Numbered from the stretch's first letter, positions 1,955-31,909 are shown. The stretch is DNA of 64,000 nucleotides from an uncultured Myxococcales bacterium (GCA_964443975.1 CAYUFS010000015.1:11711-75710); one strand, 5' to 3'. Translations and numbers: made by a program. Notes: a model not told the origin generated them from the sequence alone.

Positions 1955-3862
1955 ATGATGCCAAGAAGAGGATTGAGTGTTTCCCTGGTAGGCCTCGTCA
2001 CGGGCGTGCTCGCGGCCGGCTGTACGGGGCAGATCGGATCCACGGGTGACCCAGGAAACGGCGCGACCGGGAGCACGGGCTCGGGCGCTGGTTCCGTGCA
2101 CCCGACTGGAGGTAGCGGTAGCGCGACGGGCAGCAGCAGCGGCGGGAAGGGTACGACCGGCAGCGGTAGCGGCGGAAACGGTCAGGTCGGCACCGGCAGC
2201 GGCGGGAACGGAACGACGGGAACTGCCAGTGGCGGGACAACGGGCTCGGGGAGCGGAGGCACGGGCGGCGTCATCGCCACCGGGCCGCGGGATCCCGGCC
2301 GCGTGACCATCCGCCGTCTGAACCGGGTCGAGTACAACAACACCGTGCGGGATCTGCTGGGGACGGCGCAGGCGCCCGCGACGATGTTCCCCGACGACGC
2401 GCCCGACCTCGTCTTCGACAACAACGGCGACCTCCAGACCGTGTCCCCGGTGCAGTTCAGCCTCTATCAGTCCGCGGCCGAGGCGCTCGCGGCCGAGGTC
2501 ATGACGGTCGGCTCGAAGCAGCGCGCGCAGATCGTCACCTGCGACCTCACGACGGGCGCGGCCTGCGCTCGCACGCTGATCACCAACCTCGGCCTCAAGG
2601 CCTTCCGGCGACCGCTCGCCACCACCGAGGTCGACACCTTCGTCGCTTTGATGGCGACGGCGGCCTCCGCCGGCGCCACCGCCGACGAGCAGTTCCGTAC
2701 GGTGCTCGAGGCCATGTTGGTCTCGCCGAATTTCCTCTTCCACGTCGAGCTGGATCCCACGCCCACCTCGCTGACGCCTCATCTCTTGAGCCCCTACGAG
2801 ATGGCCTCCCGCCTGTCGTACATGATCTACCGCAGCATGCCGGACCAGACGTTGTTCGACGCCGCGGCGGCTGGCTCCCTGGCGCAGCCCTCCGACGTCC
2901 AGGCCCAGCTTCAGCGTATGTTGGTCGACGCGAAGTCGGCATTCGCCAAGTCGTTCACCGACATGTGGCTCGGCCTCAGCGTCGTCGGCACCGAGACCTT
3001 CGACGCCACTTTGTTCCCGAGCTACAGCACCGCGCTCGGAACCTCGATGGGCCTCGAGGTCATGAACTTCTTCAACGAGTTCGTGCAAAAGAACAACCCG
3101 ATCTCGGAGTTGATGACCGCGAACTACTCGTACATCGACAATAACCTGGCCAAGCTCTACGGCGTCGCGAATGTCACCGGGACTGGCGTGGTCCGCACGA
3201 CCCTCAACAACCCCCAGCGCTCGGGCTTGCTGACGATGGCCGGGGTGCTGGCCGTGACCTCGTACCCCACGCGGACCTCTGTGGTGAAGCGCGGCGCGTA
3301 CGTGCTGAGTCAGCTGCTGTGCGCCCCGGTCCCCGCGCCCCCGGCCAATGTCCCGCCATTCCCGGAGGGGGCGATCACGGCGACCACCCAGAAGGAAATT
3401 CTGGCCCAGCACCGGACGATCCCCGCGTGCGCCACCTGCCACGACAGCATGGACAACATCGGCATCGCGATGGAGAACTACGACGCCATCGGCGCCTACC
3501 GGACCACGGAGGACGGGATGCCGGTCGACTCCTCCGGCATGTTCGCCGGCGCCATCGCGAGTCCCTCCGACCCGACCGGGGCGTCGAGCCCGAAGTTCAC
3601 CGGCGCCGTCCAGCTCGGGGCCGCGGTCGCCAACGACCCGCGGTTCCTGTCCTGCGTGGCGCAGAACGTGATGTCCTACGCGCTCGGCCGTACGCTGTCG
3701 CTCACGGGCGCGGCCACCGACCAGCCCTATCTCGCCGACATCATCGCGCCGCCGCAGACGGGCAGCGCGGGGGTCCGCGATGTCTTGATGAATGTCGTCG
3801 CCAGCGAAACGTTCCGCATGCGGCGCGGGGATCCGACTACTTCGACCGGAGGAACGCCATGA
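1955..3862 (+). CDS. DUF1592/DUF1588/DUF1585-type (Planctomycete-specific PSD/PSCyt domain) lipoprotein, pair 1
   Basis: Start MMPRRGLSVSLVGLVTGVLAAGC (lipobox) follows a GGGAGG RBS. A GSG-rich linker precedes conserved blocks RRLNRVEYNNTVRDLLG and a C-terminal CATCHDSMDNIG...YDAIGAYRT block. Stop overlaps the next start as ATGA. Confidence 0.85.
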   Translation: MMPRRGLSVSLVGLVTGVLAAGCTGQIGSTGDPGNGATGSTGSGAGSVHPTGGSGSATGSSSGGKGTTGSGSGGNGQVGTGSGGNGTTGTASGGTTGSGSGGTGGVIATGPRDPGRVTIRRLNRVEYNNTVRDLLGTAQAPATMFPDDAPDLVFDNNGDLQTVSPVQFSLYQSAAEALAAEVMTVGSKQRAQIVTCDLTTGAACARTLITNLGLKAFRRPLATTEVDTFVALMATAASAGATADEQFRTVLEAMLVSPNFLFHVELDPTPTSLTPHLLSPYEMASRLSYMIYRSMPDQTLFDAAAAGSLAQPSDVQAQLQRMLVDAKSAFAKSFTDMWLGLSVVGTETFDATLFPSYSTALGTSMGLEVMNFFNEFVQKNNPISELMTANYSYIDNNLAKLYGVANVTGTGVVRTTLNNPQRSGLLTMAGVLAVTSYPTRTSVVKRGAYVLSQLLCAPVPAPPANVPPFPEGAITATTQKEILAQHRTIPACATCHDSMDNIGIAMENYDAIGAYRTTEDGMPVDSSGMFAGAIASPSDPTGASSPKFTGAVQLGAAVANDPRFLSCVAQNVMSYALGRTLSLTGAATDQPYLADIIAPPQTGSAGVRDVLMNVVASETFRMRRGDPTTSTGGTP

Positions 3863-5340
3863 GCATCGCTCGTATTTTCGACAAGAACGTTGGCTTCGAC
3901 CCCAAGGCGCTGGCCGCCGAGCGCCGGAATCCCACTCGGCCACTCGTGACCCGCCGCGCGATTCTGCGCGGGGCCGCTGCCTGTGTGGCGCTGCCGGCGC
4001 TCGAGTCGCTGCTGACACCGTCGGAGGCACGCGCCCAGGCTGCGGCGACCCCGATGCGGTTCATGGCGTGGCACATCCCCGTCGGGGTCTGGGGTCCCAG
4101 CTGGTTCCCGACCGATACCGGGACGAACTACACGCTGACGCCGACGCTGATGTCACTCGCGCCGGTGAAGAGCAAGGTGATGGTGTTCGCCGGAATCCAG
4201 AACACGCCGGCCGTGAACTCACAGGGCTCGCATGGGTGCGGCCCTCCGGGAATGACCACGTGCATGCAGGGGCAGAAGCCCAACATCACGGTCGGTATCT
4301 CGGTGGATCAGGTGTATGCGCAGGCGCTCGGCAAGGCGACCCGCATCCCGTCGATACAGATCAGCGGGACGGACTCGACGTTCTCCGACGTCTCGTACCC
4401 GGCCGTCTACAACGGCACCACCGCCTGGGCCAGCGCCACGCAGCCGCTGCCGCCCCTCGCGAACGCCGGCCAGGTGTTCGACCTCATCTTCACGGGCGCG
4501 GCGGCGACGTCGACCGATCCCGCCGCGGTTGCGGCGCTCGCGAAGCGCAAGGCGTTGCGCAAGAGCGTGCTCGACGAGGTGATCGGCGAGGAGACGTCGT
4601 TGGTCGCCAAGCTGGGGACGATCGATCGGCGCAAGGTGGATGAGTACCTCACCGGCGTTCGGGCGGCCGAGACGACGGTGCAGGCGATGTCCACCACGCC
4701 GAGCGGGATGGCGTGCAGCGCCGGGTCGATGACGCGGCCGACGCTGACCACCGGCACGCTGACGAATGGCAACGGCAAGCCCATCGCCGATCCGCCGACC
4801 TACACGGCCCTGATCTCCAGCCTGATGGCGCTGGCGTTCCAGTGCGACGCGACCCGCGTCATCAACTACCAGCAGATGAACGGTGGGCACTCGTCGTATT
4901 CGAAGTTCCCGTGGCTGAACATCAACCAGGATCACCACGGCCTCTCCCACCACAACGGCGACGTCTCCAAGGGGTTGCTGCTGGCGCAAATCGAGGCGTG
5001 GGAGATCTCCATGTTCTCCGCCTTCCTGCAGAAGCTGGACGCCGTCACGGAAGCCAACGGAAAGACCATCCTCGACAACAGCCTCATCTTCCTGTCGAGC
5101 GAGCTCGCCGACGGCAACGCGCACAATCAGGGGACCACGGCATACGCTGGGTTCTCCGGACCCACGGGGAAGCCGATCTTGCTGGCTGGCAGCGCAGGTG
5201 GGAAAATCACCACCGGTCGGCACGTCAAGTACAACAATTCGGCCCAGGCGGATCTGTTCATCGCCCTGCTGAACACCCTGGGCGTTCCAGCCACGACCTT
5301 CGGCGCAGCGGGCACGGCTCCGCTGACCGGTCTGACCTAA
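3859..5340 (+). CDS. DUF1552 (HXXSHH) family protein with Tat signal, pair 1
   Basis: Tat motif RRAILRGAAACVALPA. Canonical motif DHHGLSHHNGD. The ATG overlaps the upstream stop (ATGA). The track ORF 3319..5340 is a 5' over-extension. Confidence 0.85.
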   Translation: MSIARIFDKNVGFDPKALAAERRNPTRPLVTRRAILRGAAACVALPALESLLTPSEARAQAAATPMRFMAWHIPVGVWGPSWFPTDTGTNYTLTPTLMSLAPVKSKVMVFAGIQNTPAVNSQGSHGCGPPGMTTCMQGQKPNITVGISVDQVYAQALGKATRIPSIQISGTDSTFSDVSYPAVYNGTTAWASATQPLPPLANAGQVFDLIFTGAAATSTDPAAVAALAKRKALRKSVLDEVIGEETSLVAKLGTIDRRKVDEYLTGVRAAETTVQAMSTTPSGMACSAGSMTRPTLTTGTLTNGNGKPIADPPTYTALISSLMALAFQCDATRVINYQQMNGGHSSYSKFPWLNINQDHHGLSHHNGDVSKGLLLAQIEAWEISMFSAFLQKLDAVTEANGKTILDNSLIFLSSELADGNAHNQGTTAYAGFSGPTGKPILLAGSAGGKITTGRHVKYNNSAQADLFIALLNTLGVPATTFGAAGTAPLTGLT

Positions 5341-5380
5341 GCAGGTACCTGAATTTTGCCTCGGGCTGCTTGCAGCCCTG

Positions 5381-6751
5381 TTGGAACTACGATTGGGAGG
5401 TGCCCCGTTGCCAGCCCTTTGGGCCCGACTGCTCTTTGTTGGGGGTTTGGTTCTTTGCGGGTGCTCGACGGCGACGAATCCCGCTCCTGGAACGAGCGGT
5501 TCCGGGGGGATGGGGACCGGGGGAGTTTACTCGGGTAGTGGCGGAGCGAAGGCCGGGGGAACGGGTGGAGCGGTGGTGCTTGGGACGGGCGGGGCTCCGA
5601 TTTCGTCGACTGGCGGGGCGAGCGCAACGGGCGGCACAGGAGGAGCCGGAGGGACCGCCTCGACTGGGGGGACCTCCGCGAGCTCGGGTGGCGACACCGG
5701 CGTGGGGGGGCCGGGGAACGGCGGAAAAGCGGCCGCGGCCGGCTCCGACGGGGCGGGCGGCAGCGTCGCCACGGCCGGTAGCACGGGCACTGATCCAGGG
5801 ACCGCGGGCGACGGCGACTCGATGGTCGGGCCAAACTACCCCAAGAGCGCCGACTTGATGTCGAAGGGACTGCCCGCCGGCAAGACCTTCACGTTCACGA
5901 TGAGCTCCGCCACCAGCAAGTACTTCACCGGCATGGATCCGACGTTGACCGCGAAAGGCACCTTCAACCGCACGGTCACCGTCTATGTTCCCGCAAAGTA
6001 CAAGGACGGGGCGCCCGCGCCCTTCATGGTGATCCAGGACGGTCCCGGGCAGCTCGGAAACGTCAAGCTGGCCCTCGATAACCTGACCCAGGGGACCGAC
6101 CCCGCCCGACGTCTGCCCGCGTTCGTGGCGATCGCGGTGCAAAACGGCGGCGGCGACGGCAAGGGCAGCGAGCGAGGGTTGGAGTACGACACCGTCTCGG
6201 AGAAGTACGCCCTCTTCGTCCAGAATGAGGTCCTCCCGTTGGTGGAGTCGAACGCCGCGCTCAAGGCCGCCTATCCGAACTTTTCACTGACCACCGATCC
6301 CGACGGTCGCGGGACGGTCGGGTGCAGCTCGGGCAGCTCGGCCGCCTTCACGATGGGCTGGTTTCATCCGGAGCTGTTTCGCCGGATCGTGACGTACTCG
6401 GGGACCTTCGTGGCGCAGCAGAACGACTCCGCGCCCGAGCAGGCGATGTACCCGCTCGGCGCGTGGGACTATCACTCGGTCCTGAATCTCGTCGGGACGA
6501 CGACCCCCGCGAAGCCGCTGCGGGTCTTCATCAACGCGAATCAAAACGACAACGGCGCGGGGACGGGCGACGCCAATCATCACGACTGGTTGCTCGCCAA
6601 TCAGAGGATGGCCGCCGCTTTCAAGGCCCAGAACTACCACTATCGGTTCGTCGAAGGGCTGGGCGCCGGCCACTGCGCTGGGCAAGTTCAGGACACCACC
6701 TTGCCGGACACGTTGCTGTGGGTCTGGCAGGGATATCCGCTGAACTACTAG
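5381..6751 (+). CDS. Secreted esterase, alpha/beta-hydrolase (enterochelin-esterase/CE1-like) with Gly/Ser-rich linker
   Basis: Signal peptide, then a GGT/GGS linker, then GCSSGSSAAFTMGW (a GxSxG nucleophile elbow). The catalytic domain is about 300 aa, with an HCAG-like C-terminal block. Confidence 0.75.
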   Translation: MELRLGGAPLPALWARLLFVGGLVLCGCSTATNPAPGTSGSGGMGTGGVYSGSGGAKAGGTGGAVVLGTGGAPISSTGGASATGGTGGAGGTASTGGTSASSGGDTGVGGPGNGGKAAAAGSDGAGGSVATAGSTGTDPGTAGDGDSMVGPNYPKSADLMSKGLPAGKTFTFTMSSATSKYFTGMDPTLTAKGTFNRTVTVYVPAKYKDGAPAPFMVIQDGPGQLGNVKLALDNLTQGTDPARRLPAFVAIAVQNGGGDGKGSERGLEYDTVSEKYALFVQNEVLPLVESNAALKAAYPNFSLTTDPDGRGTVGCSSGSSAAFTMGWFHPELFRRIVTYSGTFVAQQNDSAPEQAMYPLGAWDYHSVLNLVGTTTPAKPLRVFINANQNDNGAGTGDANHHDWLLANQRMAAAFKAQNYHYRFVEGLGAGHCAGQVQDTTLPDTLLWVWQGYPLNY

Positions 6752-7064
6752 TAGTCGATACCAGTAGAGAGGTCGCTTCTTTCACTCCTGCGGGTGGACG
6801 GGGACCCATGCCGGCGGGGGCGGTCGCGTTCGGATGGCTCTCGGGCGTCGCCTGGCAACCGGCCGCGGACGGCCGGAGCGGCTCCTTACGCCCCGCCGAC
6901 CTGGTTCCCCGCCCACCCGCCGCGATGGGCCTACGTTCGTTCCCCTCCGACCGCTCCTGACAGAAACGGTCGAAGGCGAGGACCAAATGATCGCGGGGTG
7001 AGGCCGAGTGGAACGGGACGCGGCAAAGCCGCGTCGCCCAGGCGAGTCCGGACCGCCGCAGGCG

Positions 7065-8516
7065 TCAGGGCGCCGCCTTCGCGTTTCCCAGGATGAATAT
7101 GTAGTCCTGGTAGTCCCCGTTTCCGGCCTCCTCGACCGCCAGGAGGAAGCTGTTCGGGACGGCGGTCCCGGTCGCGTCCTTGAGTGGGTAGACCTTCGTG
7201 CGGTGGGTGTTGGCCGGGGAGTTGGGGGCATCCTCGGAATAGTCGTAGTCGCCATTCGTCGCGGTTCCGCCGGTGTCGTACTTCTGGCTCGCCTGATCCG
7301 TATAGGTCCAGATCCCGAAGGTCGTGGTCCCGGGATCGAAGGATTGCATCCCGGTGTTCGGCGGCAGGACCATGCGCGCGGCTTCCGAGTTCTGCATGTT
7401 CCCCGCCAGCGTGTCCATCGTCCCCACCTGGGTGCGCATCGTTGGGCTGCCCTTCGCATACCAACCGTACGGCATGGGACCCTTGGGGGAGAATCGCGCC
7501 ACCGAGGTCAAGGTGACGTTGCCGTTTCCTGCCTTCACGAACAGGGGAGCCGCGATCTCGTCGGTGCCCGCCTCGATCCCCTTCGGCAGCTTGGAGGCGT
7601 CGCTCGGGGAGATTGGGTTGGCGTTGTTTTGCGCCGCGCCGACGTTCAACTTGTAGCCGAGCGCCACCAGGATCTGCCCCAGCGTGCATTCGTGGGTCGC
7701 CGAGGTCAGGATGATGCTGTAGAGGTTCGCTTGCGCCGAGTCGGCGCCCGCCGTCGCGGTGAGCGTCGCGATCCCGGCTGTGGCGCCGCTATTTTGAGCC
7801 GGAGCCGCCCCCAGCGTGTTCGAGGCCGTAATAGCCTGGATGGTGACGGGGAGCTTCGCGCCCGCCGCGAGCATCATCGGCAACGTTGGTGCGGCGTTGA
7901 TCTGGAAATCCGCCTTGCCCGCTCCTCCGAGCGCCAGCGCCGTGATCATCAGAGGTCCCGCGCTGGTGTTGTGAACCTGAACTATCTCGGTCAGCGCGGG
8001 CGTGTTGGTGTCTCGAACGCCCGTCTGGATCACCCCGTTTGGCCACGTGGTCTCGATCGTCAGGGCGCCCGCCGGAGTGGTTCCGCCCGTCCCGGTAGTC
8101 CCGGTGGACCCGCCGCCGCTGTGGCCACCCGCCGGTGTGCCGCCTGAGCCGACGCTGCCCGCCACGCCAGTATTCCCGGCGCCGCCCGCGCCCCCGGTCG
8201 GGACTCCTCCGGTTCCCGGGGCCGTCCCGCCCGTAGCGGTCTCGCCCCCGGTGCCCGGACTGCTGCTCCCACCGGAGCCGGTCGCGCCGCCGCTCTGGGT
8301 GGCTCCGCCACTGCTCGCTGGGGTTCCGCCCGAGCCGGTAGCGCCGCCCGAGGCTGTCTTGCCTCCCGTGCTGGTTCCACCTCCCGTTCCGGGCCCGGTG
8401 GCTCCGCCCGTGCCGCCGGTCGAGGAGGCGGATGAACACGCCACGAACGAAGCGGCGCCCGTCAGGAGGCAGGAAGCGAGGAACGCGCACTTGGTGAGGG
8501 AGAACCGAACCGGCAT
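7065..8516 (-). CDS. Secreted lipoprotein: long Gly/Thr/Ser-rich linker and ~300-aa C-terminal domain of unknown function
   Basis: The start at the internal Met (MPVRFSLTKCAFLASCLLTGAASFVACSS) gives a lipoprotein signal. The track ORF's 154-aa N-extension is R/P-rich and unlikely to be coding. No recognisable catalytic motif. Confidence 0.55.
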   Translation of the reverse strand: MPVRFSLTKCAFLASCLLTGAASFVACSSASSTGGTGGATGPGTGGGTSTGGKTASGGATGSGGTPASSGGATQSGGATGSGGSSSPGTGGETATGGTAPGTGGVPTGGAGGAGNTGVAGSVGSGGTPAGGHSGGGSTGTTGTGGTTPAGALTIETTWPNGVIQTGVRDTNTPALTEIVQVHNTSAGPLMITALALGGAGKADFQINAAPTLPMMLAAGAKLPVTIQAITASNTLGAAPAQNSGATAGIATLTATAGADSAQANLYSIILTSATHECTLGQILVALGYKLNVGAAQNNANPISPSDASKLPKGIEAGTDEIAAPLFVKAGNGNVTLTSVARFSPKGPMPYGWYAKGSPTMRTQVGTMDTLAGNMQNSEAARMVLPPNTGMQSFDPGTTTFGIWTYTDQASQKYDTGGTATNGDYDYSEDAPNSPANTHRTKVYPLKDATGTAVPNSFLLAVEEAGNGDYQDYIFILGNAKAAP

Positions 8517-8662
8517 GGGGAAACCTCCGTCGGATATAACGTTCGGAATTGGGGACCGGGAAACAGGATATACCGAAGCAGTCCTTTTACTACGCTGGGC
8601 GCGCCCGGTCCTCGAGAAGGTCCTAACGCCCTCGACGCAAGCACCGGTCACGGGGCGGGCCG

Positions 8663-9862
8663 TCATGGTGACCGAGCGCACCGTGCGCCGTAGAATGAAT
8701 TGCGGCTGGCGGGAACGTCGCCGTCGCGCGCCGCGGAGAACAGGTTCCGCGCGTCGGCGGCGAAGGAGCCGCCGCGCACCACGCGGTAGGAGACGTCCGT
8801 CAAGTAGACACAATCCGTGCACGGCTCGACGTAGTTTCCGTACCAATCCAGGTTCCATTCGCCCAGGTTTCCGGCGAGGTCCAGCTGGCCCCATCGTCCC
8901 GCGCCCAGGATGGCCGTCCCGACTGGGGCCAGGTTGACGGTTCCCGCGCAGCCTGACGATCCCGGAGGGTACTGGCACCCCGTGATCGCATAGAGGCTGG
9001 CCGTTCCTGGCGCGACGGAGCCCCAGGGATACTCCCGCTCCTCGTTACCCCCCGCTGCCGCGAGCTCCCACTCCGCCTCGCTGGGCAAGAACCCGCCGTC
9101 CCAGATACAGAACGCATAGGCGTCGTACCAGCTGATGCAGTTGATGGGCAATGATTCGTGCGATGCCGGCACGTCCGTCCAGGTGTGGAAGACTGGCTCG
9201 CAAGCGAGGATGCTCTGCCAGTCGGCAACGGTCGAGCGCAGGTTCAGGGTGTCCCCGACCTGCCAGCCCGGTTCATGAGCGGCGCCGCTCGAATCCACCA
9301 ACCCCTCGCCGCCGTTGAGGTGGGCATGTATGCCGGACCCAGGCGCGGGGACCCATCCGGCGGCGGTCGCCTCAACGAAGCGCCTGAACCGGCCCACCGT
9401 GATCAGGTACTTGTCCAGTCGGTACGGGCTGACGGTCGCGACATCCGCCTCCGCAGTCGGGCCCGTCCCGTCGTTCATGTAGGACCGGTGATAGGTGCCC
9501 CCTGGAACGGACAGGCTCGCACAGCAACTCTCTCCCCCATTCGGTCCGCAGTCGGTCGTCCCAGGGGCGACGACGGCGCAGCTCGGGGGAGGGGGTGCCG
9601 CGGCATCGTCGCACGCGACACCTGGGCAGACCTCGGAGCTATCGCCGGGCACCGGGTCCGTGGCCGCTGCGTCGTGGCCATCTGCACCGCCAACATCGGA
9701 GGCGTCCGGGCGAGAGCCTGACGAGGCCCCGCAGGCGAAGAGCCAGAGGCTCGCCACGACGATCGCCCCCGGCCACCCGAGGTCCAATGCCCGAGGCCCG
9801 AGGCCGCTTGAATCGGTTGGGCGGCGCCAGCAAGATCGCTGTGTCGGTCTATGTGTGATCAC
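8663..9862 (-). CDS. Formylglycine-generating-enzyme (FGE-sulfatase/SUMF1) domain lipoprotein
   Basis: Motifs ISWYDAYAFCIW, GNLGEWNLDWY and RVVRGGSF are typical of the FGE-sulfatase fold. The N-terminus is Cys-rich with an LFAC lipobox. The exact start is uncertain. Confidence 0.75.
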   Translation of the reverse strand: MITHRPTQRSCWRRPTDSSGLGPRALDLGWPGAIVVASLWLFACGASSGSRPDASDVGGADGHDAAATDPVPGDSSEVCPGVACDDAAAPPPPSCAVVAPGTTDCGPNGGESCCASLSVPGGTYHRSYMNDGTGPTAEADVATVSPYRLDKYLITVGRFRRFVEATAAGWVPAPGSGIHAHLNGGEGLVDSSGAAHEPGWQVGDTLNLRSTVADWQSILACEPVFHTWTDVPASHESLPINCISWYDAYAFCIWDGGFLPSEAEWELAAAGGNEEREYPWGSVAPGTASLYAITGCQYPPGSSGCAGTVNLAPVGTAILGAGRWGQLDLAGNLGEWNLDWYGNYVEPCTDCVYLTDVSYRVVRGGSFAADARNLFSAARDGDVPASRNSFYGARCARSP

Positions 9863-10063
9863 CTCCGACAGCCTCCGCAGGCATGTCGTCCCGTCCGGAT
9901 CGACTCGCGCAAACGTTGAAAGGCATCCACTCGGTCTCCTGCGCTATTCATAATGCGGACAGTTGCACAATCAAACGTCTGCGTGCCGGAAATTGTCCCC
10001 TGACGAGGCCGACCGGTGGGTCGGTGCAACCGACCGTTCTCCCCCCTGCTCCCTGAGGTCGAT

Positions 10064-11518
10064 ATGATGAAGCGAGATCTCCGATATTCGCGTCGCCGCT
10101 TTCTCAAGTCCGTCGGCGCAGGCGCGGCGTTGTTGCCGCTGTTGCAGTCGGACCGCAGCGATGCGGCCTGCCTCGTCACCGGCATCAAGCGAATGTATAT
10201 CGTGGCCTGGACGAACGGGATGTTGAGCAGCATCAACCAGTGGGCCACCGCCGGGGCAGATCCGAGCTCGTGGACCCTGGGGACGATGGGCTTCCAGGAT
10301 TCGCTGAAGCCGTACATGAGCGACCTCCTCTTGCTCAATGGCGTCGACTACAAATTCATCAAGGACATGCCCGGTTCGGGCGAGCGCACGGGTCACGCGG
10401 TGTTCCCCGGCATGCTCACGGGCGCCTATTATCAGACCCTCTCCTCGGGAACCAGCTCCGACCTCGCGGGCGGCCCTTCGGTTGATCAGTACATCGGATC
10501 CAACCTGGTGAACGGCGGCTACAAGGGCATTGCCAGCATCAACCAGGCGGCGTACGTCGTCAGCACCGGTCACCTCTCCTGGAAGGCCTCGGGCCAGGTG
10601 GTGCTTCCGAACCCCGATCCCGCCAGCGTGTTCAACCTCTACTTCAAGGGAGCGATGCCGGCTCCGAACCCAATGCCGACGGCGGACGCAGGGGCGCCGC
10701 CTCCCGTCGACAACACGAACGCGATCAAGAAGAGCATCCTGGACTCCGTCGTCAACGACCTGAATCGGTTCTCGAGCATCGTCGGTACCGCGGACAAGGC
10801 CAGCATCGATCAACACCTCACCGCCGTCAGAAACATCGAGACGCGCCTCGCGAACATGCAGATGGCAGGGGGCGGTTCGGACGCGGGTGTCTCCACGTCG
10901 ACGGGGAACGCGGCCTGCACCTTCCCGAGCGTGACCGCCGAGCCCACACCGGTCAACGCCACGGCTAACGTCCCAGCGATTGCGAAATTGCACATGGACA
11001 TCGGGGTGGCCGCCTTCGCCGCGGATTTGACCCGCGTCGCGGTCTTGCAAATCGGCGATCAGGGCTCGGCGAACCTGATCTTGACGTGGCTTGGATTCAA
11101 ATCGGGCGGGCCGCTTGCCTCGGACAACAACACCGGCGACACGAATGGGTTTCACGCCATCGCGCACGAGAACACCATGCGCAAGGTGACTTGCGATACC
11201 TGGTTCCAGAGCCAGCTGGCGTACCTGATCGGTCAGATGAAGGGCATCACGGACGCGAACAACAAATCGATGCTCGACAGCAGCGTCATCGTCGGCATGA
11301 ACAGCATGCGCACGGGCACCCACGAGACGACAGGTGTACCGGTGGTGATGGCGGGGAGCTGCGGCGGCTACTTCAAGACGGGCCGAAGTCTCGCGCTCCC
11401 GGCCGGGACGCCGAACAACGGTTTGCTGGTGGCGCTCTGCAACGCCATGGGAACCCCGACGACGACCTTCGGTCAGGCGAGCTACGGCGGCGAGTTGGCC
11501 GTCCTGAGGGGTCCCTGA
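10064..11518 (+). CDS. DUF1552 (HXXSHH-variant) family protein with Tat signal, pair 2
   Basis: MMKRDLRYSRRRFLKSVGAGAALLPLL is a Tat signal. A GAGGT RBS lies upstream. The motif is the HAIAHE variant. The whole protein aligns with the other two DUF1552 genes. Confidence 0.85.
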   Translation: MMKRDLRYSRRRFLKSVGAGAALLPLLQSDRSDAACLVTGIKRMYIVAWTNGMLSSINQWATAGADPSSWTLGTMGFQDSLKPYMSDLLLLNGVDYKFIKDMPGSGERTGHAVFPGMLTGAYYQTLSSGTSSDLAGGPSVDQYIGSNLVNGGYKGIASINQAAYVVSTGHLSWKASGQVVLPNPDPASVFNLYFKGAMPAPNPMPTADAGAPPPVDNTNAIKKSILDSVVNDLNRFSSIVGTADKASIDQHLTAVRNIETRLANMQMAGGGSDAGVSTSTGNAACTFPSVTAEPTPVNATANVPAIAKLHMDIGVAAFAADLTRVAVLQIGDQGSANLILTWLGFKSGGPLASDNNTGDTNGFHAIAHENTMRKVTCDTWFQSQLAYLIGQMKGITDANNKSMLDSSVIVGMNSMRTGTHETTGVPVVMAGSCGGYFKTGRSLALPAGTPNNGLLVALCNAMGTPTTTFGQASYGGELAVLRGP

Positions 11519-11561
11519 GATGTTCAAAGCGACGACAACGAGAGCGAACGGGAGAACACCG

Positions 11562-13511: not shown

Positions 13512-13548
13512 GGCTGGCATGACGGCCAGCCCCAAGTCGTAAGGTCGA

Positions 13549-14628: not shown

Positions 14629-14637
14629 GGAGCTCTC

Positions 14638-24127: not shown

Positions 24128-24137
24128 CTCGCCGCGA

Positions 24138-25679: not shown

Positions 25680-25858
25680 GGCGGTACCCGCGAATCCTAC
25701 CGTGCTGCGGGGCCAACCGCCGGCAAGTCTCGCCGGAAGGGGCCGTTGCAACGGTTCACCATCGCAAAAGCAACCCGGTAGCGGGCTGGATCCGGCTTGT
25801 GCCACCTCGCGTTAGGGACGTTTCCGGGCTTTGCTGCTGTGAATGTATTGAAAGATAG

Positions 25859-28600
25859 GTGATAATGCGCTTCGGCCCACTTCCAGATTCGAGCCGTATG
25901 AAGCGCCCCCCCGAGACACTTCGGGTGCCGAGGTCGAGTCGCCCAACCGACCGACGGGCATCCGTTTTCGCCGCCTTGGCGGTCGTGGCCAACCTCCGCG
26001 TGGCCTCGGCGCGGGCCGGGGCGGCGGATGAAGCCCCACCTCCAAAGTCATTTCACGGACCCGAGATTGCCGAGGGCGCTTCGCCCAGCGCGCCGCTGGT
26101 CACGGCCGCCGCCGTGCGAGCGTTGTCGCCGGAACATGCTCAACAGGCCCTCACGGTCAGGATTCGGGGCGTCATCACCTGCGCCGGGAGCCTGATATTT
26201 TTCCAGGACGCGACCGCGGGTATCTTCATTGACGCGCCCGTCAGCACGAAGGGGCGATACCAGGTGGGGCAATACGGCGTGCTCGAGGGTTACACCGCGC
26301 CGGGCTTGTTCGCCCCGCAGATCGTGCCCAGGCGGTTCAACCCCATCGGAACCACGGCGCTGCCAGAGGCACGCCCGAGCAAGTTCGACGAGCTGTCGAC
26401 CGGAAAGCTCGATAGCCAGCGTGTCGAGGTGGAGGGCATCATCCGCTCGGTGATGCCTGACGAGCGCGCCGATCTGCGACGGACGGTGACCTTGAAGATG
26501 GCGTCCGACGACGGTGTGTTTCCGGTCTATGTCTCGGATCTCCCTCCGGACAAGCTGCGGGCCGTGGTCGACGCCTCGGTCAAGGCGCGGGGCGTGGTCG
26601 GGGGCGTCTTCAACGAACGCCGACAAATGATCGGCATCAAGCTCTACGTCGGGCGCGCCGACGACTTGGTCATCGAGGAGAAGGGCCCGGGCGAGCCCTT
26701 CTCGGTCCGCACCACGCCCGTCGAGAGCCTGCTGCGCTTCGAGCCGGAGGGCGCGAGCCGCCATCGGGTGAAGGTGCGCGGCACCGTCACCTTCTATCAG
26801 CCCGGCGGCGCCATGTTCGTCGAGGACGGCACGGGCGGCGTGGCGATCCGGACCCGGCAGGCCGAGCCGTTGTCCGTGGGGGATCGGGTGGAGGTGCTGG
26901 GCTTTCCCGAGATGGGGCCGTGGACGCCGTTCCTGGGCGACGCTGTGTTTCGACGGAGCGGTCCGGCGGCGCAGCCCCTGATCCCGATCTCCGTGACCGC
27001 GGATCAGGAGCTGAGCGCCGGCGCGCACGATTCACGGCTGGTCAGCGTCGAGGCCGAACTGGTGGACGTGGTGCGCGACGCCGGCCGCGTCCTGCTGGTG
27101 GCGAAGGCCAAGAACGTCCTTTTCGACGCGGAGGTCCCGCAAGCGGGGGAGGTGCCCGCTTCGGCGCTGGCTGACCTTGCCAACGGCAGCCGGGCGCGGC
27201 TGACAGGGATCAGCGTGGTGCGCCTGGGACAAGATCGCGACCACCCTACAGAGTTCCGCTTGCTGTTGCGAAACCTGGACGACATCGCCGTGCTTCAGAA
27301 GCCTCCTTGGTGGACGTTGCGGAGACTGGTGTGGATATTGGCGGCGCTGGTGGCGATCACGGCCGTGGCGCTGGCCTGGGGGGTCGTGCTCCGGCGACGG
27401 GTGCGCGCGCAGACGGGGATCATCCAGGTGCGCATGGAGAGCGAGGCGATGCTCGCCGCGCGCTACCGCGATCTGTTCGAGAACGCCAACGACGTGATCT
27501 ACACGCACGACATGGCGGGCCGGCTGTTGACGATCAACCGGGCCGGTGAGGCGATGACCGGGTATGCGCGCGACGAGCTCCTCAAGATGACGATCTTCGA
27601 TCTCGCGTTGCCGGCGCGCCGCGAGTCCGTGTCGATGTGGCTGAACAAGCTGGCGGGAGGACAGGAGACCCGACCGACGTTCGAATCGGAGCTGCTGTCC
27701 AAGGCGGGACGGATCATTCCCTTCGAGGTGAGCATTCGTCCCATCATGGAGGGCGAACGGATCTCGGCGGTGGAGGGCATCGCGCGGGACATCACGGAGC
27801 GCAAGCGCGCGGAGACGGAGCTGGCCGCCGCCCACCAGCGCCTGGTGGAGACGTCGCGCCGGGCCGGCATGGCCGAGGTGGCGGCGGGCGTCCTGCACAA
27901 CGTTGGCAACGTGTTGTCGAGCGTGACGGTGTCAGTCGCGCACCTGACCGAACGGTTCAGGGGGCAGGGCGGCGGCGACCCGTCGGTCGCCCGCGACCTG
28001 GAGTCACTCGGACAAAGCGTGGAGCACATCAAGGAGATCGTGGCCATGCAGCAGGGCTACGCGCGTCTGTCGGGGATCCAGGAGGAGGTCCCGGCGGAGA
28101 CCCTGATCGAGGACGCGTTGCGCATCAACCGCGAGGCGCTGGAGCGCCACGGCATCACCGTCGTGCGGGAGTACTCGCCCTCGCCCCCGCTGGTGATCGA
28201 GAAGCACAAGGTGCTGCAGATCTTGGTGAACATTCTCGGCAACGCGAAGTACGCTTGCGACGGCAAGGTCCAGGACGGCCAGCCGGCGCGGATCGTGGTG
28301 CGCATCGATACGCCGAAGGGGGATCGGGCCGGTAACCGCGTCCGCATCGTCGTCGCCGACAACGGCAGCGGCATCTCGCACGAGAACCTGACGCGGATCT
28401 TCGACAACGGCTTCACCACGAGAAAGGACGGGCACGGCATCGGCCTTTACAGCGCCGCGCTGACGGCGCGCGAGCTCGGCGGGGCGCTGTTCGTTCACAG
28501 CGACGGGCTGGGCCGTGGCGCGCGGTTCACATTGGATCTGCCGGTGCGGCCACCGCCGCCGAAGGCCGGGGTGGAGGGCACCACCACCCTGCGAACGTGA
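25859..28600 (+). CDS. Sensor histidine kinase: ~400-aa periplasmic sensor, TM, PAS, HisKA, HATPase_c
   Basis: TM helix WILAALVAITAVALAWGVVL. PAS-like region. An H-box lies near VAAGVLHNVGN. The C-terminus has the ATPase G-boxes DNGSGI and GHGIGL. An alternative start lies at 25898. Confidence 0.8.
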   Translation: MIMRFGPLPDSSRMKRPPETLRVPRSSRPTDRRASVFAALAVVANLRVASARAGAADEAPPPKSFHGPEIAEGASPSAPLVTAAAVRALSPEHAQQALTVRIRGVITCAGSLIFFQDATAGIFIDAPVSTKGRYQVGQYGVLEGYTAPGLFAPQIVPRRFNPIGTTALPEARPSKFDELSTGKLDSQRVEVEGIIRSVMPDERADLRRTVTLKMASDDGVFPVYVSDLPPDKLRAVVDASVKARGVVGGVFNERRQMIGIKLYVGRADDLVIEEKGPGEPFSVRTTPVESLLRFEPEGASRHRVKVRGTVTFYQPGGAMFVEDGTGGVAIRTRQAEPLSVGDRVEVLGFPEMGPWTPFLGDAVFRRSGPAAQPLIPISVTADQELSAGAHDSRLVSVEAELVDVVRDAGRVLLVAKAKNVLFDAEVPQAGEVPASALADLANGSRARLTGISVVRLGQDRDHPTEFRLLLRNLDDIAVLQKPPWWTLRRLVWILAALVAITAVALAWGVVLRRRVRAQTGIIQVRMESEAMLAARYRDLFENANDVIYTHDMAGRLLTINRAGEAMTGYARDELLKMTIFDLALPARRESVSMWLNKLAGGQETRPTFESELLSKAGRIIPFEVSIRPIMEGERISAVEGIARDITERKRAETELAAAHQRLVETSRRAGMAEVAAGVLHNVGNVLSSVTVSVAHLTERFRGQGGGDPSVARDLESLGQSVEHIKEIVAMQQGYARLSGIQEEVPAETLIEDALRINREALERHGITVVREYSPSPPLVIEKHKVLQILVNILGNAKYACDGKVQDGQPARIVVRIDTPKGDRAGNRVRIVVADNGSGISHENLTRIFDNGFTTRKDGHGIGLYSAALTARELGGALFVHSDGLGRGARFTLDLPVRPPPPKAGVEGTTTLRT

Positions 28601-28640
28601 GCGCGGGCCGGTCGGACGTCGTGGGCGGCGTTGGGCGCGG

Positions 28641-30077
28641 TCAGGCGGCGATATCGAGGCCGAGGAAGTTTCCGCAAGCCGGCTCGGCGCCGAACCCGGC
28701 GGACGGGAGGCCCATGACGTTTTGAATCGTGCAGCCCAGCCGCTGGTGGATCTGGGTGCCCACGTCGACCATGTAGCCAGTCTTCTTCAGCTTGCCGGCG
28801 GCGCCCCCGAGAAACACGATCGGGTACCCGTTCGTTCCGTGGGGACCGGTGGCGAGCTCGTTGCCCCAGACGACCAGCGAATTGTCGAGCGCGTTCGTCC
28901 CGTTCGCCTGCGGGAACGTCGCCAGCCGCTTGCCGAGATCGGTGACCAACTGCGAGTAGTACTTCGCCACGCCCGTGCACAGGTCGCCCGCCGTGCTCTG
29001 TCCCCCCTTGTCCGCGTGCGCCGCCTGATCGTGAAAGTCGGCCGGCATGTTGGGGAGGTTCAGCCACTGATAGTGGAAGTGGCCGCCCCCGCGGCCGAAC
29101 TGGAAGGTCATCACGCCAACCAGGTTGCACGCGATGGCGTTGGCGATGAACTCCATGTAGAGGCGCATCAGGACGTCGGCGTTGGCTTCGTCGGCCTGAG
29201 CCTTCAGCGATACGCCCGTCATCGACGGTTTCACGCTGGCGCATGACGCTGGCGTCGCCGGCCCGCCCGAACCCATCGACGTGAACGCTCCGGAGAGGCG
29301 GTTTTCGAGATCCCGCACCGAGGTGAGGTGGGTGTCGACCTTCATGCGTTCGGTGGCCCCGAGCCGCCCCTGGAGCGCGGTCAGATCCAGGGCCACGGCG
29401 TCGAGGACGGATTTTCGCTGCGCCAGCCGAAGCGCGGCCGCCGCGTTCGCGCTGCCCGCCGTTCCCCCGGCGCCGGTGGTCGGCGTCGGCTGGATCGAGC
29501 CGAACAGCTTCGTGTAGAGCGCGTAGATGTCAGTCTCGCAAGGCACCTGGACCCCAGCGGTCGCACACGGCCAGGACGCGCGGCCGGCGTTGATGAGGCT
29601 GTGGTTCTCGGCGATGACGCCGCAGTGAATGGTCTTGAACGGGTTCGTGAACGGTATCTGCTTGGCCAGGATCTGGTCGACCGAGGGGCCGCCGCCCGCC
29701 GGCGCCCCCATCGAAATGTTGTCGACGCCGGAGTAGAGGCCATGCCAGCCCCAGTCGTGACCATTCCCCTGGGGCGAGCCTTTCTTGTTCAGGTTCACCC
29801 CCTTGATCAGCGTGACCTTCTGTCCGACGGAGGGCTCGGACAGCATGTTGAACAGAATCGGCGAGGTGTTGGCCAGGGTCGGCGAGGGCCACGTGGTCGC
29901 GGTGGGCCAGAAGCTCTCCTGATGCGTGCCGTTCGTTTGCATCAGCAAGACCAAGTTGGGCCTGGTCGCCGCGGTTTGCGCGAACGCATGCTTGAGGAAC
30001 GACGGGACCAGCAAGGTGGAGCCCGCGGCGCGCATCAGGGTCCGGCGGGAGAACTGGAAATTGGTGGAGGAGCTCAT
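28641..30077 (-). CDS. DUF1552 (HXXSHH-variant) family protein with Tat signal, pair 3
   Basis: SRRTLMRAAGSTLLVP is a Tat motif. The HDQAAHADKGG variant is present. The start overlaps the upstream stop (ATGA). Confidence 0.85.
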   Translation of the reverse strand: MSSSTNFQFSRRTLMRAAGSTLLVPSFLKHAFAQTAATRPNLVLLMQTNGTHQESFWPTATTWPSPTLANTSPILFNMLSEPSVGQKVTLIKGVNLNKKGSPQGNGHDWGWHGLYSGVDNISMGAPAGGGPSVDQILAKQIPFTNPFKTIHCGVIAENHSLINAGRASWPCATAGVQVPCETDIYALYTKLFGSIQPTPTTGAGGTAGSANAAAALRLAQRKSVLDAVALDLTALQGRLGATERMKVDTHLTSVRDLENRLSGAFTSMGSGGPATPASCASVKPSMTGVSLKAQADEANADVLMRLYMEFIANAIACNLVGVMTFQFGRGGGHFHYQWLNLPNMPADFHDQAAHADKGGQSTAGDLCTGVAKYYSQLVTDLGKRLATFPQANGTNALDNSLVVWGNELATGPHGTNGYPIVFLGGAAGKLKKTGYMVDVGTQIHQRLGCTIQNVMGLPSAGFGAEPACGNFLGLDIAA

Positions 30078-31909
30078 CGGTCATCCTTCCTGGTCACGAA
30101 GGTTGTGTGAGTCACGGACGTGAGGACGAGATCCTTCACGTGGCCTCCCCCTTGCGAAAAGGAGGCGCCCCAGTCCTTGGACACGCACTTGTCGGCGTCC
30201 TCCACGGGCCTCGCCTGGGCGAAGCTGAAGAAGTGCTCCGCCATGCAAGCCTCCAGCAGCTTGCTCTGCGAGAGCATGTCGGCCAGCTGGGCGGGCCCTT
30301 CGAACGGGCCGTCGACGTTCGAGCCATCCGCTGCCGCGGTGCTGGTCAGCTGACCGGTGGAATCGACCACCTGACCGTTCTCCATCGTCCGGAAGCGCCC
30401 GATGCCGTCCATCTGTTCGAATCCGAATCCGATCGGGTCGAACGAATTGTGGCAGGCAGCGCAAGACACGTCATCGAGGTGGATCTTCTCCAGCTTCTGC
30501 CGCGTCGTGGTCGTGGCGTCGTTGGAATCCAGCGGGTTGTTGTTGGCGATGCGACTGACCACGTCCGGTGGCGGAGCGGGGATGTACTGACAGAGCAGCT
30601 GCCGTCGCACGAGGAGACCACGTTCGACCGGCCCGGAGTGATTGGCCCCCGAATGGACGGTCAAGACCGCCGGCAACGACAGGATGCCCTTCCGGTGTTT
30701 CGGATCGAGGCCCGACTGGAGCAGGTCGGCGCCGTAAATCGACGCGAGCGCCGTGGGGACGTTCGTGCTGGTTCCCGTCATGAAGGAGGAGACGGTTCCG
30801 TCACCGCCATTGAGCTGGGTCTTTACGAACTGGTCGAACTCCTGCTGCATCGCGGTCAGGATGGTCGGCGTCAGCGTGGGGAACACGCTGGTGTCCTTCA
30901 GCGTGTCGGCGAGCGGGGTCATGTCCATCCAGCCGCCGATGAACCGCGCCAGCGTATCCTGGGCGGGGGCCGTCGCGAGCAGGCGTTGTGCCTGGGTCAA
31001 GATGTCGTTCGGGTTCGTGAAGCCCGTCGCCTGGGCGGCCGCCAGGAGGGTGTCGTCGGGGCGGCCTCCCGTCAGCAGCAGCGACAGCTGGGAGGCGATC
31101 TCGTACTGGGTCAACGCGATGGGCTTTCCCGGGTTCGCCGGAGCCGCCGGGTCGCCGAGCTCGCTGACGTACAAGGTGTTCGGAGACTGCAGCACCAGCT
31201 CGACGACCAGGCGCACCGAGGTGGCGTAGTCCTGGCCCATGTTCGCCACGGTGCTGATGCGGGTGAATTCGTCGTCGGCGAGCGGCCGGCCGTACGCCTT
31301 GCTGGCGAAGGAGCGAATGAAGGTCTGCAGGCACGTCGCCGAGCCGGCCGCCGTGGCGCAGGGAGCGAGGGTCGTAGGATTGGCCTGGCTGGCGAGGCTG
31401 GCGGCGAGATCGGAGGTGTCCTCCTGCATCGACGACAGCGACCAGGGGGCCTGGTTTCCTTGATTGTCGAAGCCGGTCACGAGGTTGTCCGCCGGGAGGG
31501 CGGTGGTGACCGCCGTGCGGGCCGTCGGTCCAAGGAGGTTGGCGACGACGTTCGTGTATTCCCGGATGGTCAAGGGCCTGAGACGGCGGCTGGTGAGACC
31601 GTCGCACGCGGCCACCGTGCCGGTGCCCGCGCCCGCGCCCGTGACGCCACCGCTGGCGCCGCCGCCGATGGTGAGACCGGCGCCGCCGCCGCCGCTATTC
31701 GCGCCGCCTGAGCCGCTCCCCCCGATCTTGGCACCTCCCGTGCCCCCCGAACCTGTCGTGGAGGTGTTACCCCCGGACGAGGTGGCGCCCGACCCAGCGC
31801 CGCTACCCGTGCCGGCCGCAGGCCCGCCCACGGTGCCCGTGCATCCCCCGAGCAGCAGCCCGAAGAGCGTGAAACCACGGAGCAAAGTACCTGTCGGGAG
31901 TGGTCTCAT
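30074..31909 (-). CDS. DUF1592/DUF1588-type PSD/PSCyt lipoprotein, pair 3
   Basis: MRPLPTGTLLRGFTLFGLLLGGC follows GAGGT. A GSG linker precedes RPLTIREYTNVVANLLGP and a C-terminal CAACHNSFDPIGFGFEQMDGIGRFRT block. The track ORF is 5' over-extended. Confidence 0.85.
   Translation of the reverse strand: MRPLPTGTLLRGFTLFGLLLGGCTGTVGGPAAGTGSGAGSGATSSGGNTSTTGSGGTGGAKIGGSGSGGANSGGGGAGLTIGGGASGGVTGAGAGTGTVAACDGLTSRRLRPLTIREYTNVVANLLGPTARTAVTTALPADNLVTGFDNQGNQAPWSLSSMQEDTSDLAASLASQANPTTLAPCATAAGSATCLQTFIRSFASKAYGRPLADDEFTRISTVANMGQDYATSVRLVVELVLQSPNTLYVSELGDPAAPANPGKPIALTQYEIASQLSLLLTGGRPDDTLLAAAQATGFTNPNDILTQAQRLLATAPAQDTLARFIGGWMDMTPLADTLKDTSVFPTLTPTILTAMQQEFDQFVKTQLNGGDGTVSSFMTGTSTNVPTALASIYGADLLQSGLDPKHRKGILSLPAVLTVHSGANHSGPVERGLLVRRQLLCQYIPAPPPDVVSRIANNNPLDSNDATTTTRQKLEKIHLDDVSCAACHNSFDPIGFGFEQMDGIGRFRTMENGQVVDSTGQLTSTAAADGSNVDGPFEGPAQLADMLSQSKLLEACMAEHFFSFAQARPVEDADKCVSKDWGASFSQGGGHVKDLVLTSVTHTTFVTRKDDR

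Follow-up and report, generated by a model that had tools for sequence, protein, structure and literature searches.

What do the three pairs of exported proteins encoded in a 64,000-nucleotide stretch of DNA from an uncultured Myxococcales bacterium (hereafter the window) do, and do they amount to a system of their own? The families concerned are numerous: in Planctomycetota, Verrucomicrobiota, Acidobacteriota and Myxococcota, few uncharacterised families have expanded as far as PSCyt/PSD together with DUF1552 or DUF1501. Each pair is one copy of a widespread and already described two-gene module, in which a PSCyt3/PSD protein (the DUF1592-type partner) is combined with a DUF1552 protein; the window is an ordinary example of this module and adds no new kind of system. 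Judged by sequence comparison, its three copies are anciently diverged subfamilies.

Three copies of a two-gene module

All six open reading frames called by the initial annotation were recovered at the same coordinates, and profile-HMM searches bore out its family assignments, with three DUF1592-type and three DUF1552 proteins matching in Pfam. The partners (1955-3862 and 11562-13511 on the plus strand, 30074-31909 on the minus strand) match PSD4/DUF1592 (PF07631), PSCyt3/DUF1588 (PF07627), PSD5/DUF1595 (PF07637) and PSD2/DUF1585 (PF07624), all above gathering scores and with E values down to 5e-35; those of pairs 1 and 3 match PSD3/DUF1587 as well. HXXSHH/DUF1552 (PF07586, gathering cutoff 30) is matched with 228, 141 and 162 bits in pairs 1, 2 and 3, respectively (3859-5340 (+), E 2e-67; 10064-11518 (+), 1e-40; 28641-30077 (-), 4.5e-47). 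NCBIfam has no model for any of the six proteins, and HMMs built from homologues picked out exactly these three plus three genes in the 64 kb, with no others. In every pair the two genes neighbour each other on one strand, the partner lying upstream in pairs 1 and 3 and the order being reversed in pair 2.

The pairing of PSCyt3/PSD2-5 with DUF1552 in Planctomycetota and Verrucomicrobiota was published by He et al. 2017 (PMC5615132, Text S1 and Fig. S7), a status that the initial annotation had missed; the PSCyt/PSD domains were named by Studholme et al. 2004, as related in PMC5615132 and PMC2754498.

In pair 1, the first gene encodes a lipoprotein of 635 residues in the order PSD3-PSD5-PSD4-PSCyt3-PSD2, with a signal peptide and lipobox Cys23, a Gly/Ser/Thr linker over about residues 24-115, and the motif CATCH at residues 492-496 (DNA 3428-3442); an identical start is called in public contigs. 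An ATGA stop/start overlap joins it to the DUF1552 gene, whose 493-residue product has a conserved 30-residue N-terminal extension, the Tat motif TRRAILR (residues 31-37), His125, Asp150, DHHGLSHHNGD (358-368), LDNSLIFLSSE415 and His422. Pair 3 is built in the same order: a 611-residue lipoprotein (PSD3-PSD5-PSD4-PSCyt3-PSD2; lipobox Cys23, Gly/Ser linker, CAACH) whose gene shares an ATGA overlap with that of a 478-residue DUF1552 protein carrying the Tat motif SRRTLMR, the degenerate motif FHDQAAHADKGG and the core His and Asp residues. Orthologues of the pair-3 lipoprotein (49-66% identity) lie directly upstream of a pair-3-type DUF1552 gene in all 23 metagenome loci, the partner being visible as a fragment only in five short loci of the 23.

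Pair 2 begins with its DUF1552 gene, whose 484-residue product has the Tat motif SRRRFLK and the degenerate HxxSHH motif FHAIAHE, retains equivalents of the core His125, Asp150, His364 and His422, and belongs to a well-populated subfamily (59-77% identity). The lipoprotein that follows (649 residues; PSD5-PSD4-PSCyt3-PSD2; lipobox Cys25, Gly/Ser linker, CAKSCH, that is, CxxxCH) is separated from the stop at 11518 by a 43-nt spacer, and its gene has its own GGGAGA Shine-Dalgarno-like site. The stop/start overlap claimed for all three pairs thus holds for the ATGA junctions of pairs 1 and 3 and fails for pair 2, with its reversed order and gap. The DUF1552-first order is kept in all four subfamily-2 relatives looked up and recurs in a more distant pair (locus L093), and CxxxCH is kept in five of five relatives. 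A gene for a two-domain Lcl_C (DUF1566) secreted protein or lipoprotein (13549-14628 (+), Pfam E 3e-59), overlooked in the initial annotation, lies 38 nt beyond pair 2. Three of the four relatives have such a gene immediately behind the pair and the fourth has none; it is probably the third gene of a pair-2-type operon.

Pair 1 therefore has both CxxCH in PSCyt3 and HxxSHH in DUF1552, pair 2 has CxxxCH and FHxxAHE, and pair 3 has CxxCH and HDxxAHA, with the core Cys-His of the partner and His364 of DUF1552 retained in all three. These motifs had been read correctly from the start, as had the export signals (a predicted lipoprotein signal in the partner, a predicted Tat signal in DUF1552) and the linker, a Gly/Ser/Thr-rich tract of about 90 residues after the lipobox Cys in all three partners; their CxxCH, said to end the protein, in fact lies inside PSCyt3, about 140 residues ahead of the C-terminus.

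Conservation and divergence of the pairing

The three pairs had been described as a triplication. Identity among the window paralogues is 25-27% for DUF1552 and 30-32% for the partner, and each copy has much closer orthologues (55-82% identity) in other Polyangia contigs. Because the paralogues are only 25-32% identical, a recent triplication does not account for them: they represent ancient subfamilies rather than the product of a local triplication. The claim of a two-protein module fared better, in that the pairing is real and co-conserved. The partner lies directly upstream on the same strand in 62 of the 73 genome loci with enough flank, the ATGA overlap is found at 43 of 86 module junctions, and the pairing spans Myxococcota, Planctomycetota, Verrucomicrobiota, Acidobacteriota, Armatimonadota and some Gammaproteobacteria. 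At every related locus, the DUF1552 gene closest to a given window pair adjoins the partner closest to that same pair; by this comparison, the partners co-diverge as cognate pairs within three subfamilies. An adjacent partner is missing for about 15% of DUF1552 genes, most of them verrucomicrobial. An apparent DUF1592-DUF1552 fusion (P0379) was dropped as Rosetta-stone evidence, its PSCyt3 being truncated and its PSD2 missing, and is most likely a frameshift or assembly artefact.

The DUF1592-type partner

The PSCyt3 motif keeps its second Cys and its His without exception in 56 partner sequences, and its first Cys is shifted by one residue in subfamily 2, a subfamily-specific trait. The putative haem-attachment motif of the window copies (CATCH, CAKSCH as a CX3CH variant, and CAACH) sits in proteins of Sec-type export, with lipoprotein signals recognised by pattern. 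The AF2 model of the pair-1 partner (pLDDT 86.7) is all-alpha, with no cytochrome c fold and no significant fold match in the PDB, and searches of the PDB with the partner sequences and profile gave nothing significant, so that it is the motif that points to haem binding. An upstream residue, His372, is a candidate haem ligand that is not fully invariant. Of 56 partners from other phyla, 33 have a genuine class-I cytochrome c domain (PSCyt1/Cytochrome_CBB3) fused at the N-terminus, 14 carry CBM60 and 1 carries CBM35. The three window partners have neither the N-terminal cytochrome domain nor any CBM, and the arguments for a redox or glycan role come from relatives.

The DUF1552 protein

DUF1552 has the alpha/beta core of the alkaline-phosphatase superfamily, a likeness that the initial annotation did not record. 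Identity to enzymes of that superfamily is about 10%; none of 29 DUF1552 members matched Sulfatase, Phosphodiest, Metalloenzyme or Alk_phosphatase at E values up to 10, and neither the sequences nor their profile found anything significant in the PDB. When the DUF1552 alignment was compared by hhalign with the Pseudomonas aeruginosa arylsulfatase, a 30-column local match of non-significant E value (0.06) set LDNSLIFLSSE against LDNTFVLFMSD, whose Asp317 is a calcium ligand; this match serves as a hint and does not place DUF1552 in that family.

A set of His and Asp residues is invariant across 316 DUF1552 sequences in four groups, and a His/Asp/Ser/Gln set across more than 300 that include three deeply diverged subfamilies. 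The nucleophile of the superfamily (Ser, Thr or formylglycine, in Ser/Thr/Cys-x-Pro-x-Arg) and the metal-binding Asp with which the first beta-strand ends are both absent from all the DUF1552 groups aligned. By the order of secondary-structure elements rather than residue-level superposition, the invariant His125 takes the topological place of the nucleophile, where the helix that follows the second strand begins. In place of the first-strand Asp, the three window proteins have His, Ala or Met at position 72, where most other members have Tyr or Phe. The Cys of HGCGPPG in pair 1 is not conserved. A formylglycine (type I) sulfatase was considered and rejected, the C/S-x-P-x-R signature being missing and the nearby FGE-like gene not conserved; maturation of DUF1552 by the neighbouring FGE-fold protein was likewise rejected for want of a conserved Cys or CxPxR. 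The Pfam TAT_signal model matches 11 of the 29 DUF1552 proteins, and the family as a whole comprises more than 5,000 clusters at 50% identity.

Gene neighbourhood

A secreted hydrolase-like gene (an esterase, an FGE-like gene) had been seen at every pair, together with a sensor kinase, and none of these proved to be a conserved neighbour. In the flanks of related loci, 97 open reading frames matched 137 Pfam families, each in at most three loci, and a family-wide search of those flanks for a conserved third gene found none; the one extra gene that is conserved is Lcl_C behind pair-2-type modules. Orthologous loci of pair 1 and of pair 3 have neighbours that differ from those in the window, and in those of pair 3 BLAST at 1e-10 matched neither the kinase nor the MFS and PLD genes. 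On these grounds the esterase, the FGE-like gene, the kinase and the MFS and PLD genes are not counted as parts of the module. The FGE-sulfatase-domain gene (8663-9862) itself matches FGE-fold families, EgtB, SenA and GldK included, with scores that fall far short of their cutoffs. GH2, GH39 and polysaccharide-lyase-like genes neighbour the module in orthologous loci and, like the CBM fusions, speak for a link to glycans. A search of related loci for classical sulfatases found none. Promoter and terminator scans of the window, at 67% G+C, returned counts at chance level. It is very improbable that the pairs form, with the esterase, FGE-like protein and kinase, one larger locus-specific pathway, as the initial annotation implied: all three pairs do lie within 30 kb, and an FGE-sulfatase-domain gene also occurs near a pair-2-type module in one relative (L089), but unrelated genes on both strands separate the pairs, in addition to the unrelated neighbours of the pair-1 and pair-3 orthologues and the scatter of flanking families just described.

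What the module may do

We put the probability at roughly 0.4 that the two proteins of the module make up a periplasmic haem/metal enzyme whose substrates are probably glycans; a haem/metal-dependent periplasmic complex, as first proposed, is a reasonable reading. The genes of a pair are co-transcribed and those of pairs 1 and 3 translationally coupled, as their sequence shows. The DUF1592-type protein would be exported unfolded by the Sec route and lipidated at its lipobox Cys, with the Gly/Ser tract of about 90 residues serving as a tether; once it is in the periplasm, its invariant CxxCH, or CxxxCH in subfamily 2, would gain covalent haem c. DUF1552 would fold in the cytoplasm, probably with its metal bound, before Tat export; in its alkaline-phosphatase-type core, a His-rich site (His125, Asp150, His359/360, His364 and His422) would replace the usual nucleophile and first-strand Asp. 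In the cognate complex, the haem protein may pass electrons to or from a His-ligated metal centre. The substrate would probably be a glycan or another extracellular polymer, with specificity differing by subfamily, and subfamily 2 would add the lectin-like Lcl_C protein. Export by Sec, as predicted for the partner, suits a haem c protein, and export by Tat, as predicted for DUF1552, suits an enzyme that carries its cofactor; Tat export also serves the purely hydrolytic PhoD and PhoX. We know of no redox enzyme in the alkaline-phosphatase superfamily, which counts against a redox role; were that role true, this would be the first such enzyme, to our knowledge. The fuller proposal, that DUF1552 is a mechanistically new branch of the superfamily, with His for nucleophile and a His-ligated redox metal served by a haem c protein of new fold, and that the module represents widespread periplasmic oxidative enzymes for glycans or other polymers, is unlikely.

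The fold of DUF1552 is also what would be expected of a purely hydrolytic module, in which DUF1552 would be a divergent hydrolase of the sulfatase, phosphatase or phosphodiesterase kind and the lipoprotein a non-redox accessory with a structural or metal-binding CxxCH; the weak local alignment with arylsulfatase, the hydrolases near the pairs in the window (esterase) and in some relatives, and the Tat route all sit well with it. We consider it somewhat unlikely, however, since the canonical nucleophile and first-strand Asp are missing in all groups, Pfam gave no match to Sulfatase, Phosphodiest or Metalloenzyme even at E values up to 10, Glu415 is Gly in most non-myxobacterial members, and most partners from other phyla bear a true cytochrome c domain, which an accessory to a hydrolase would not need. 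Under hydrolysis, the lipoprotein might bind substrate, anchor or chaperone. The same missing residues, with the degenerate HxxSHH of pairs 2 and 3, could alternatively mean that DUF1552 is a dead alkaline-phosphatase-fold protein like the periplasmic domain of PbgA/YejM, the pair having a binding, sensing or envelope-structural role. This is distinctly unlikely: a His/Asp/Ser/Gln set that stays invariant in over 300 sequences is what active or metal sites typically show, and genomes carry dozens of paralogues each, set among differing neighbours (PMC5615132, Fig. S7 table), which together with the CBM fusions resembles an enzyme family of many specificities.

Relation to known systems

The analysis sharpens the question at four points: the Tat-exported protein combines an alkaline-phosphatase-type fold with a His-based site that is not the canonical one, the fold of the haem-motif partner has no solved relative, the two co-evolve as cognate pairs, and the myxobacterial copies are pared down. 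PafA, S1 formylglycine sulfatases, NPPs and LtaS/EptA-type transferases have the core fold in common with DUF1552 and no profile match to it; DUF1552 differs from these enzymes in its His-rich site, having no Ser/Thr/Cys nucleophile and no first-strand Asp. Sulfite dehydrogenase SorAB pairs a catalytic subunit exported by Tat with a cytochrome c subunit exported by Sec, and by analogy only it resembles the module in its division of export routes, its adjacent co-transcribed genes and its haem c partner. Unlike systems of that type, DUF1552 shows none of the known redox cofactor folds (Mo, FAD, PQQ or Cu-cupredoxin), and its partner is an all-alpha protein of about 520 residues and unmatched fold, not a small cytochrome.

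A sister module of PVC bacteria, DUF1501 with PSCyt1/PSCyt2/PSD1, was described by Kamneva et al. 2012 (PMC3542564), who proposed a membrane-targeted electron-transport role. Like the module of the window, it sets a Tat-signal protein beside a large, often CBM-bearing CxxCH multidomain protein, with many paralogues per genome, whereas the Pfam families of both partners differ.

The closest likeness is to the module of He et al., with shared Pfam families and adjacency, the same gene order in pairs 1 and 3, and copy numbers of the two genes that match per genome in Planctomycetota and Verrucomicrobiota (PMC5615132). CBM fusions are reported there as well. By contrast, the window and all examined Myxococcota copies have no PSCyt1 and no CBM, with a lipoprotein signal and Gly/Ser tether instead. 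With a lipid anchor, a single CxxCH and no CBM, such stripped-down copies would lend themselves to biochemical work; if the oxidative-enzyme reading is true, these minimal pairs would be the simplest versions to reconstitute, and the class would compare in function with cytochrome-fed oxidative polysaccharide enzymes. Pair 2 also departs from the published module, as a member of a reversed-order subfamily with CxxxCH, a degenerate HxxSHH and an added Lcl_C gene, and in pair 3 HxxSHH is degenerate in another way.

Module genes and their families

All six open reading frames named in the initial annotation are present where it placed them, and their Pfam scores lie far above the gathering thresholds, confirming the family assignments. 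The DUF1592-type genes (1955-3862 (+), 11562-13511 (+) and 30074-31909 (-)) match PSD4/DUF1592, PSCyt3/DUF1588, PSD5/DUF1595 and PSD2/DUF1585, with an additional Pfam match to PSD3/DUF1587 in the partners of pairs 1 and 3; the DUF1552 genes (3859-5340 (+), 10064-11518 (+) and 28641-30077 (-)) match HXXSHH/DUF1552. Homologue-derived HMMs detect three genes of each family and no more in the 64 kb, with none of either past the 32-kb position. The quoted motifs are all found, CATCH, CAKSCH and CAACH in the partners and DHHGLSHHNGD, FHAIAHE and FHDQAAHADKGG in the DUF1552 proteins, as are the twin-arginine motifs and the lipobox cysteines followed by Gly/Ser/Thr-rich tracts. The G+C content of the window is 65-73%, the nearest relatives of its proteins are annotated as Polyangia, Polyangiaceae or Myxococcales, and an identical stretch is carried by the JGI metagenome contig Ga0265331_10000083.

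The window pairs are three subfamilies of an already known, uncharacterised module. According to later papers that cite the work, the domains received their names in work on Rhodopirellula baltica (Studholme 2004, via PMC5615132 and PMC2754498), and a table in He et al. lists matching copy numbers of the two genes per genome, e.g., 17 and 17 (PMC5615132). The PSCyt3/PSD plus DUF1552 module is paralleled by one of DUF1501 and PSCyt1/2/PSD1, for which a membrane-targeted electron-transport role has been proposed (Kamneva et al. 2012, PMC3542564). A full-text literature search returned no functional study of either the DUF1592-type or the DUF1552 family. The question is an old one and the family very large (at 50% identity, pair 3 alone leads to more than 5,000 clusters); the window offers minimal versions for experiments but otherwise no particular advantage.

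Conservation and age of the pairs

Scanning a single genome for each species yielded more than 596 DUF1552 loci; the 80 kept for analysis come from Myxococcota, Planctomycetota, Verrucomicrobiota, Acidobacteriota and Armatimonadota, with a small number from Gammaproteobacteria. One pair (L010) belongs to a Myxococcus species. Where enough upstream DNA was available, a DUF1592-type gene lies directly upstream on the same strand in 62 of 73 loci, so that the pairing is indeed co-conserved across genomes; the other 11, most of them from Verrucomicrobiota, are flanked by unrelated genes. Some 15% of DUF1552 genes, again largely from Verrucomicrobiota, lack any DUF1592-type gene within 6 kb (loci L022, L023, L032, L046, L050, L059, L071, L075 and L078 from other contigs, with DUF1552 at about 6000-7300 in most). 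At L022 a convergent 708-aa ORF downstream of DUF1552 contains CxxCH but has no Pfam match.

In each related locus, the DUF1552 protein nearest to a given window pair adjoins the partner nearest to that same pair, which indicates that cognate partners have diverged together. The two genes are co-transcribed and often translationally coupled, and their products co-evolve while differing in export signal (lipoprotein/Sec versus Tat). The stop/start overlap had been ascribed to all three pairs; it holds for pairs 1 and 3, where a 4-nt ATGA is preceded by a Shine-Dalgarno-like site, but not for pair 2, in which DUF1552 comes first, stopping at 11518, and a 43-nt spacer leads to the partner's ATG at 11562. 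Across the family, the ATGA overlap ends 43 of 86 DUF1592-type genes, against a chance level of about 10% by our rough expectation; judged from these junctions, translational coupling is a trait of the family as a whole.

The three pairs had also been described as a triplication. The window paralogues, however, share only 25-27% identity (DUF1552) and 30-32% (partner), and each has far nearer orthologues in other contigs, at up to 82%, 77% and 72% for pairs 1, 2 and 3. On these identities, they are three old subfamilies that share 30 kb by happenstance and not the product of a local triplication. Such clustering of diverged pairs recurs, since paralogous pairs also lie side by side in contigs of Myxococcota and Planctomycetota: three within 13 kb in L009 (1-11711) and two each in L007 (4223-12152), L035 (3045-12843), L093 (1-7386) and L108 (1-6667). 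The two modules in L093, one of pair-3 type and one of pair-2 type, are transcribed divergently.

The reversed gene order is kept in all four pair-2-type relatives looked up, and CxxxCH replaces CxxCH in all subfamily-2 partners. A gene for a two-domain Lcl_C/DUF1566 protein (13549-14628 (+)) starts 38 nt after pair 2, and an Lcl_C/DUF1566 gene immediately follows the pair in three of the four relatives (L088, L089 and L091), which suggests a three-gene operon specific to this subfamily; the variant as a whole, with reversed order, CxxxCH and a third gene, may be new. Ten nucleotides further on, 14638-16131 (+) encodes MopE-type Cys-rich "putative metal-binding" repeats and closes with a Gly/Ser-rich tract followed by "GGC", a hydrophobic stretch and clustered Arg residues, an ending similar to a MYXO-CTERM sorting tail; such a gene is not conserved beside pair-2-type modules elsewhere.

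Structure and possible function

The partner model is confident and all-alpha (pLDDT 86.7); the protein has no solved relative, an observation that may be new. Within the PSCyt3 motif, the second Cys and the His do not vary among 56 relatives. A genuine class-I cytochrome c domain (PSCyt1/Cytochrome_CBB3) is fused N-terminally in 33 of them, none of these from a myxobacterial phylum, and among the 56, CBM60 occurs in 14 and CBM35 in one. All Myxococcota copies, the window's three included, have a single CxxCH, and the window partners carry a lipoprotein signal and Gly/Ser tether in place of the extra N-terminal domain, a pared-down architecture that may likewise be undescribed.

An alkaline-phosphatase-fold assignment of DUF1552 with a non-canonical His site, which is suggested by the AF2 model of the pair-1 protein (pLDDT 77.5), may also be new. 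This relation is invisible to every sequence or profile method tried: hhalign against the P. aeruginosa arylsulfatase (sequence verified against 1hdh) gave only a non-significant local match, placing LDNSLIFLSSE415 on LDNTFVLFMSD317. Across 316 aligned sequences drawn from four groups, G76, H125, S148, D150, Q151, D239, H364, G419 and H422 (pair-1 numbering) are universal, and none has Asp at the end of the first strand. By the order of secondary structures in the model, not by coordinates, His125 would lie where the helix following the second strand begins, the place of the superfamily's Ser/Thr/formylglycine nucleophile. The HxxSHH motif is conserved in part: H364 is universal, but only two His remain in subfamilies 2 (H360 and H364) and 3 (H359 and H364). 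The first 30 codons of the pair-1 gene (3859-3948) encode an extension of some 30 residues, MSIxRIxDxNxxFDPKALAAERRNP, before the twin-arginine motif; this extension is conserved in subfamily 1 down to homologues of 47% identity. In Tat signals, a long and conserved n-region typically marks a protein that has its own export chaperone.

We give a probability of roughly 0.4 to a redox model as a whole. The Sec-exported partner would gain haem c at CxxCH in the periplasm, the Tat-exported DUF1552 protein would be an alkaline-phosphatase-fold metalloprotein with a His-rich site, and the two would build a cognate complex and exchange electrons. In relatives, the fused cytochrome and carbohydrate-binding modules suggest that glycans are the target of the redox chemistry, possibly with one specificity per subfamily. 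A divergent hydrolase served by a non-redox accessory protein is a weaker candidate, and a catalytically dead binding or envelope pair, PbgA-like, is less probable still.

A larger locus-specific pathway that takes in neighbouring genes seems very improbable. The initial annotation, whose interpretation is partly supported overall, had placed a hydrolase beside every pair and a sensor kinase beside pair 3, and these are not kept in orthologous loci. Pair-1 orthologues have GH2, GH39 or polysaccharide-lyase-like genes in place of the esterase (5381-6751); homologues of the kinase (25859-28600), MFS and PLD genes are absent from all 23 pair-3-type loci; and the 97 flanking ORFs of related loci spread over 137 Pfam families, no one of which occurs in more than three loci. 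The hydrolase and kinase genes are therefore incidental, and the one conserved neighbour is the Lcl_C/DUF1566 gene behind pair-2-type modules.

Other genes of the window

Divergent from pair 1, 93-1640 (-) encodes a 515-aa protein with a UshA/5'-nucleotidase-like metallophosphoesterase N-terminal part (NCBIfam UshA_like_PCGU, 235 bits, under the 275-bit cutoff) and, at the C-terminus, a region resembling multihaem cytochrome c554 (Pfam Cytochrome_C554); its adjacency to pair 1 is kept in identical contigs only. The 878-aa ORF at 38164-40800 (-) unusually combines a TonB C-terminal domain (residues 78-152) with a following TonB-dependent-receptor Plug domain (residues 203-310). A tightly packed operon at 43565-50374 (+), encoding an ABC ATPase, two FtsX/MacB-type permeases, a LolA-like protein and a 554-aa protein without Pfam matches, has a third-position G+C of 0.88-0.93, markedly above the rest of the window. 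At 58249-63999, a PqqB-like metallo-beta-lactamase-fold gene, a PqqD-radical SAM-SPASM fusion (59597-61387) and, on the opposite strand, an M16 peptidase, with no PqqC seen among them, resemble a set of genes for maturing a peptide of the RiPP or PQQ-like kind.
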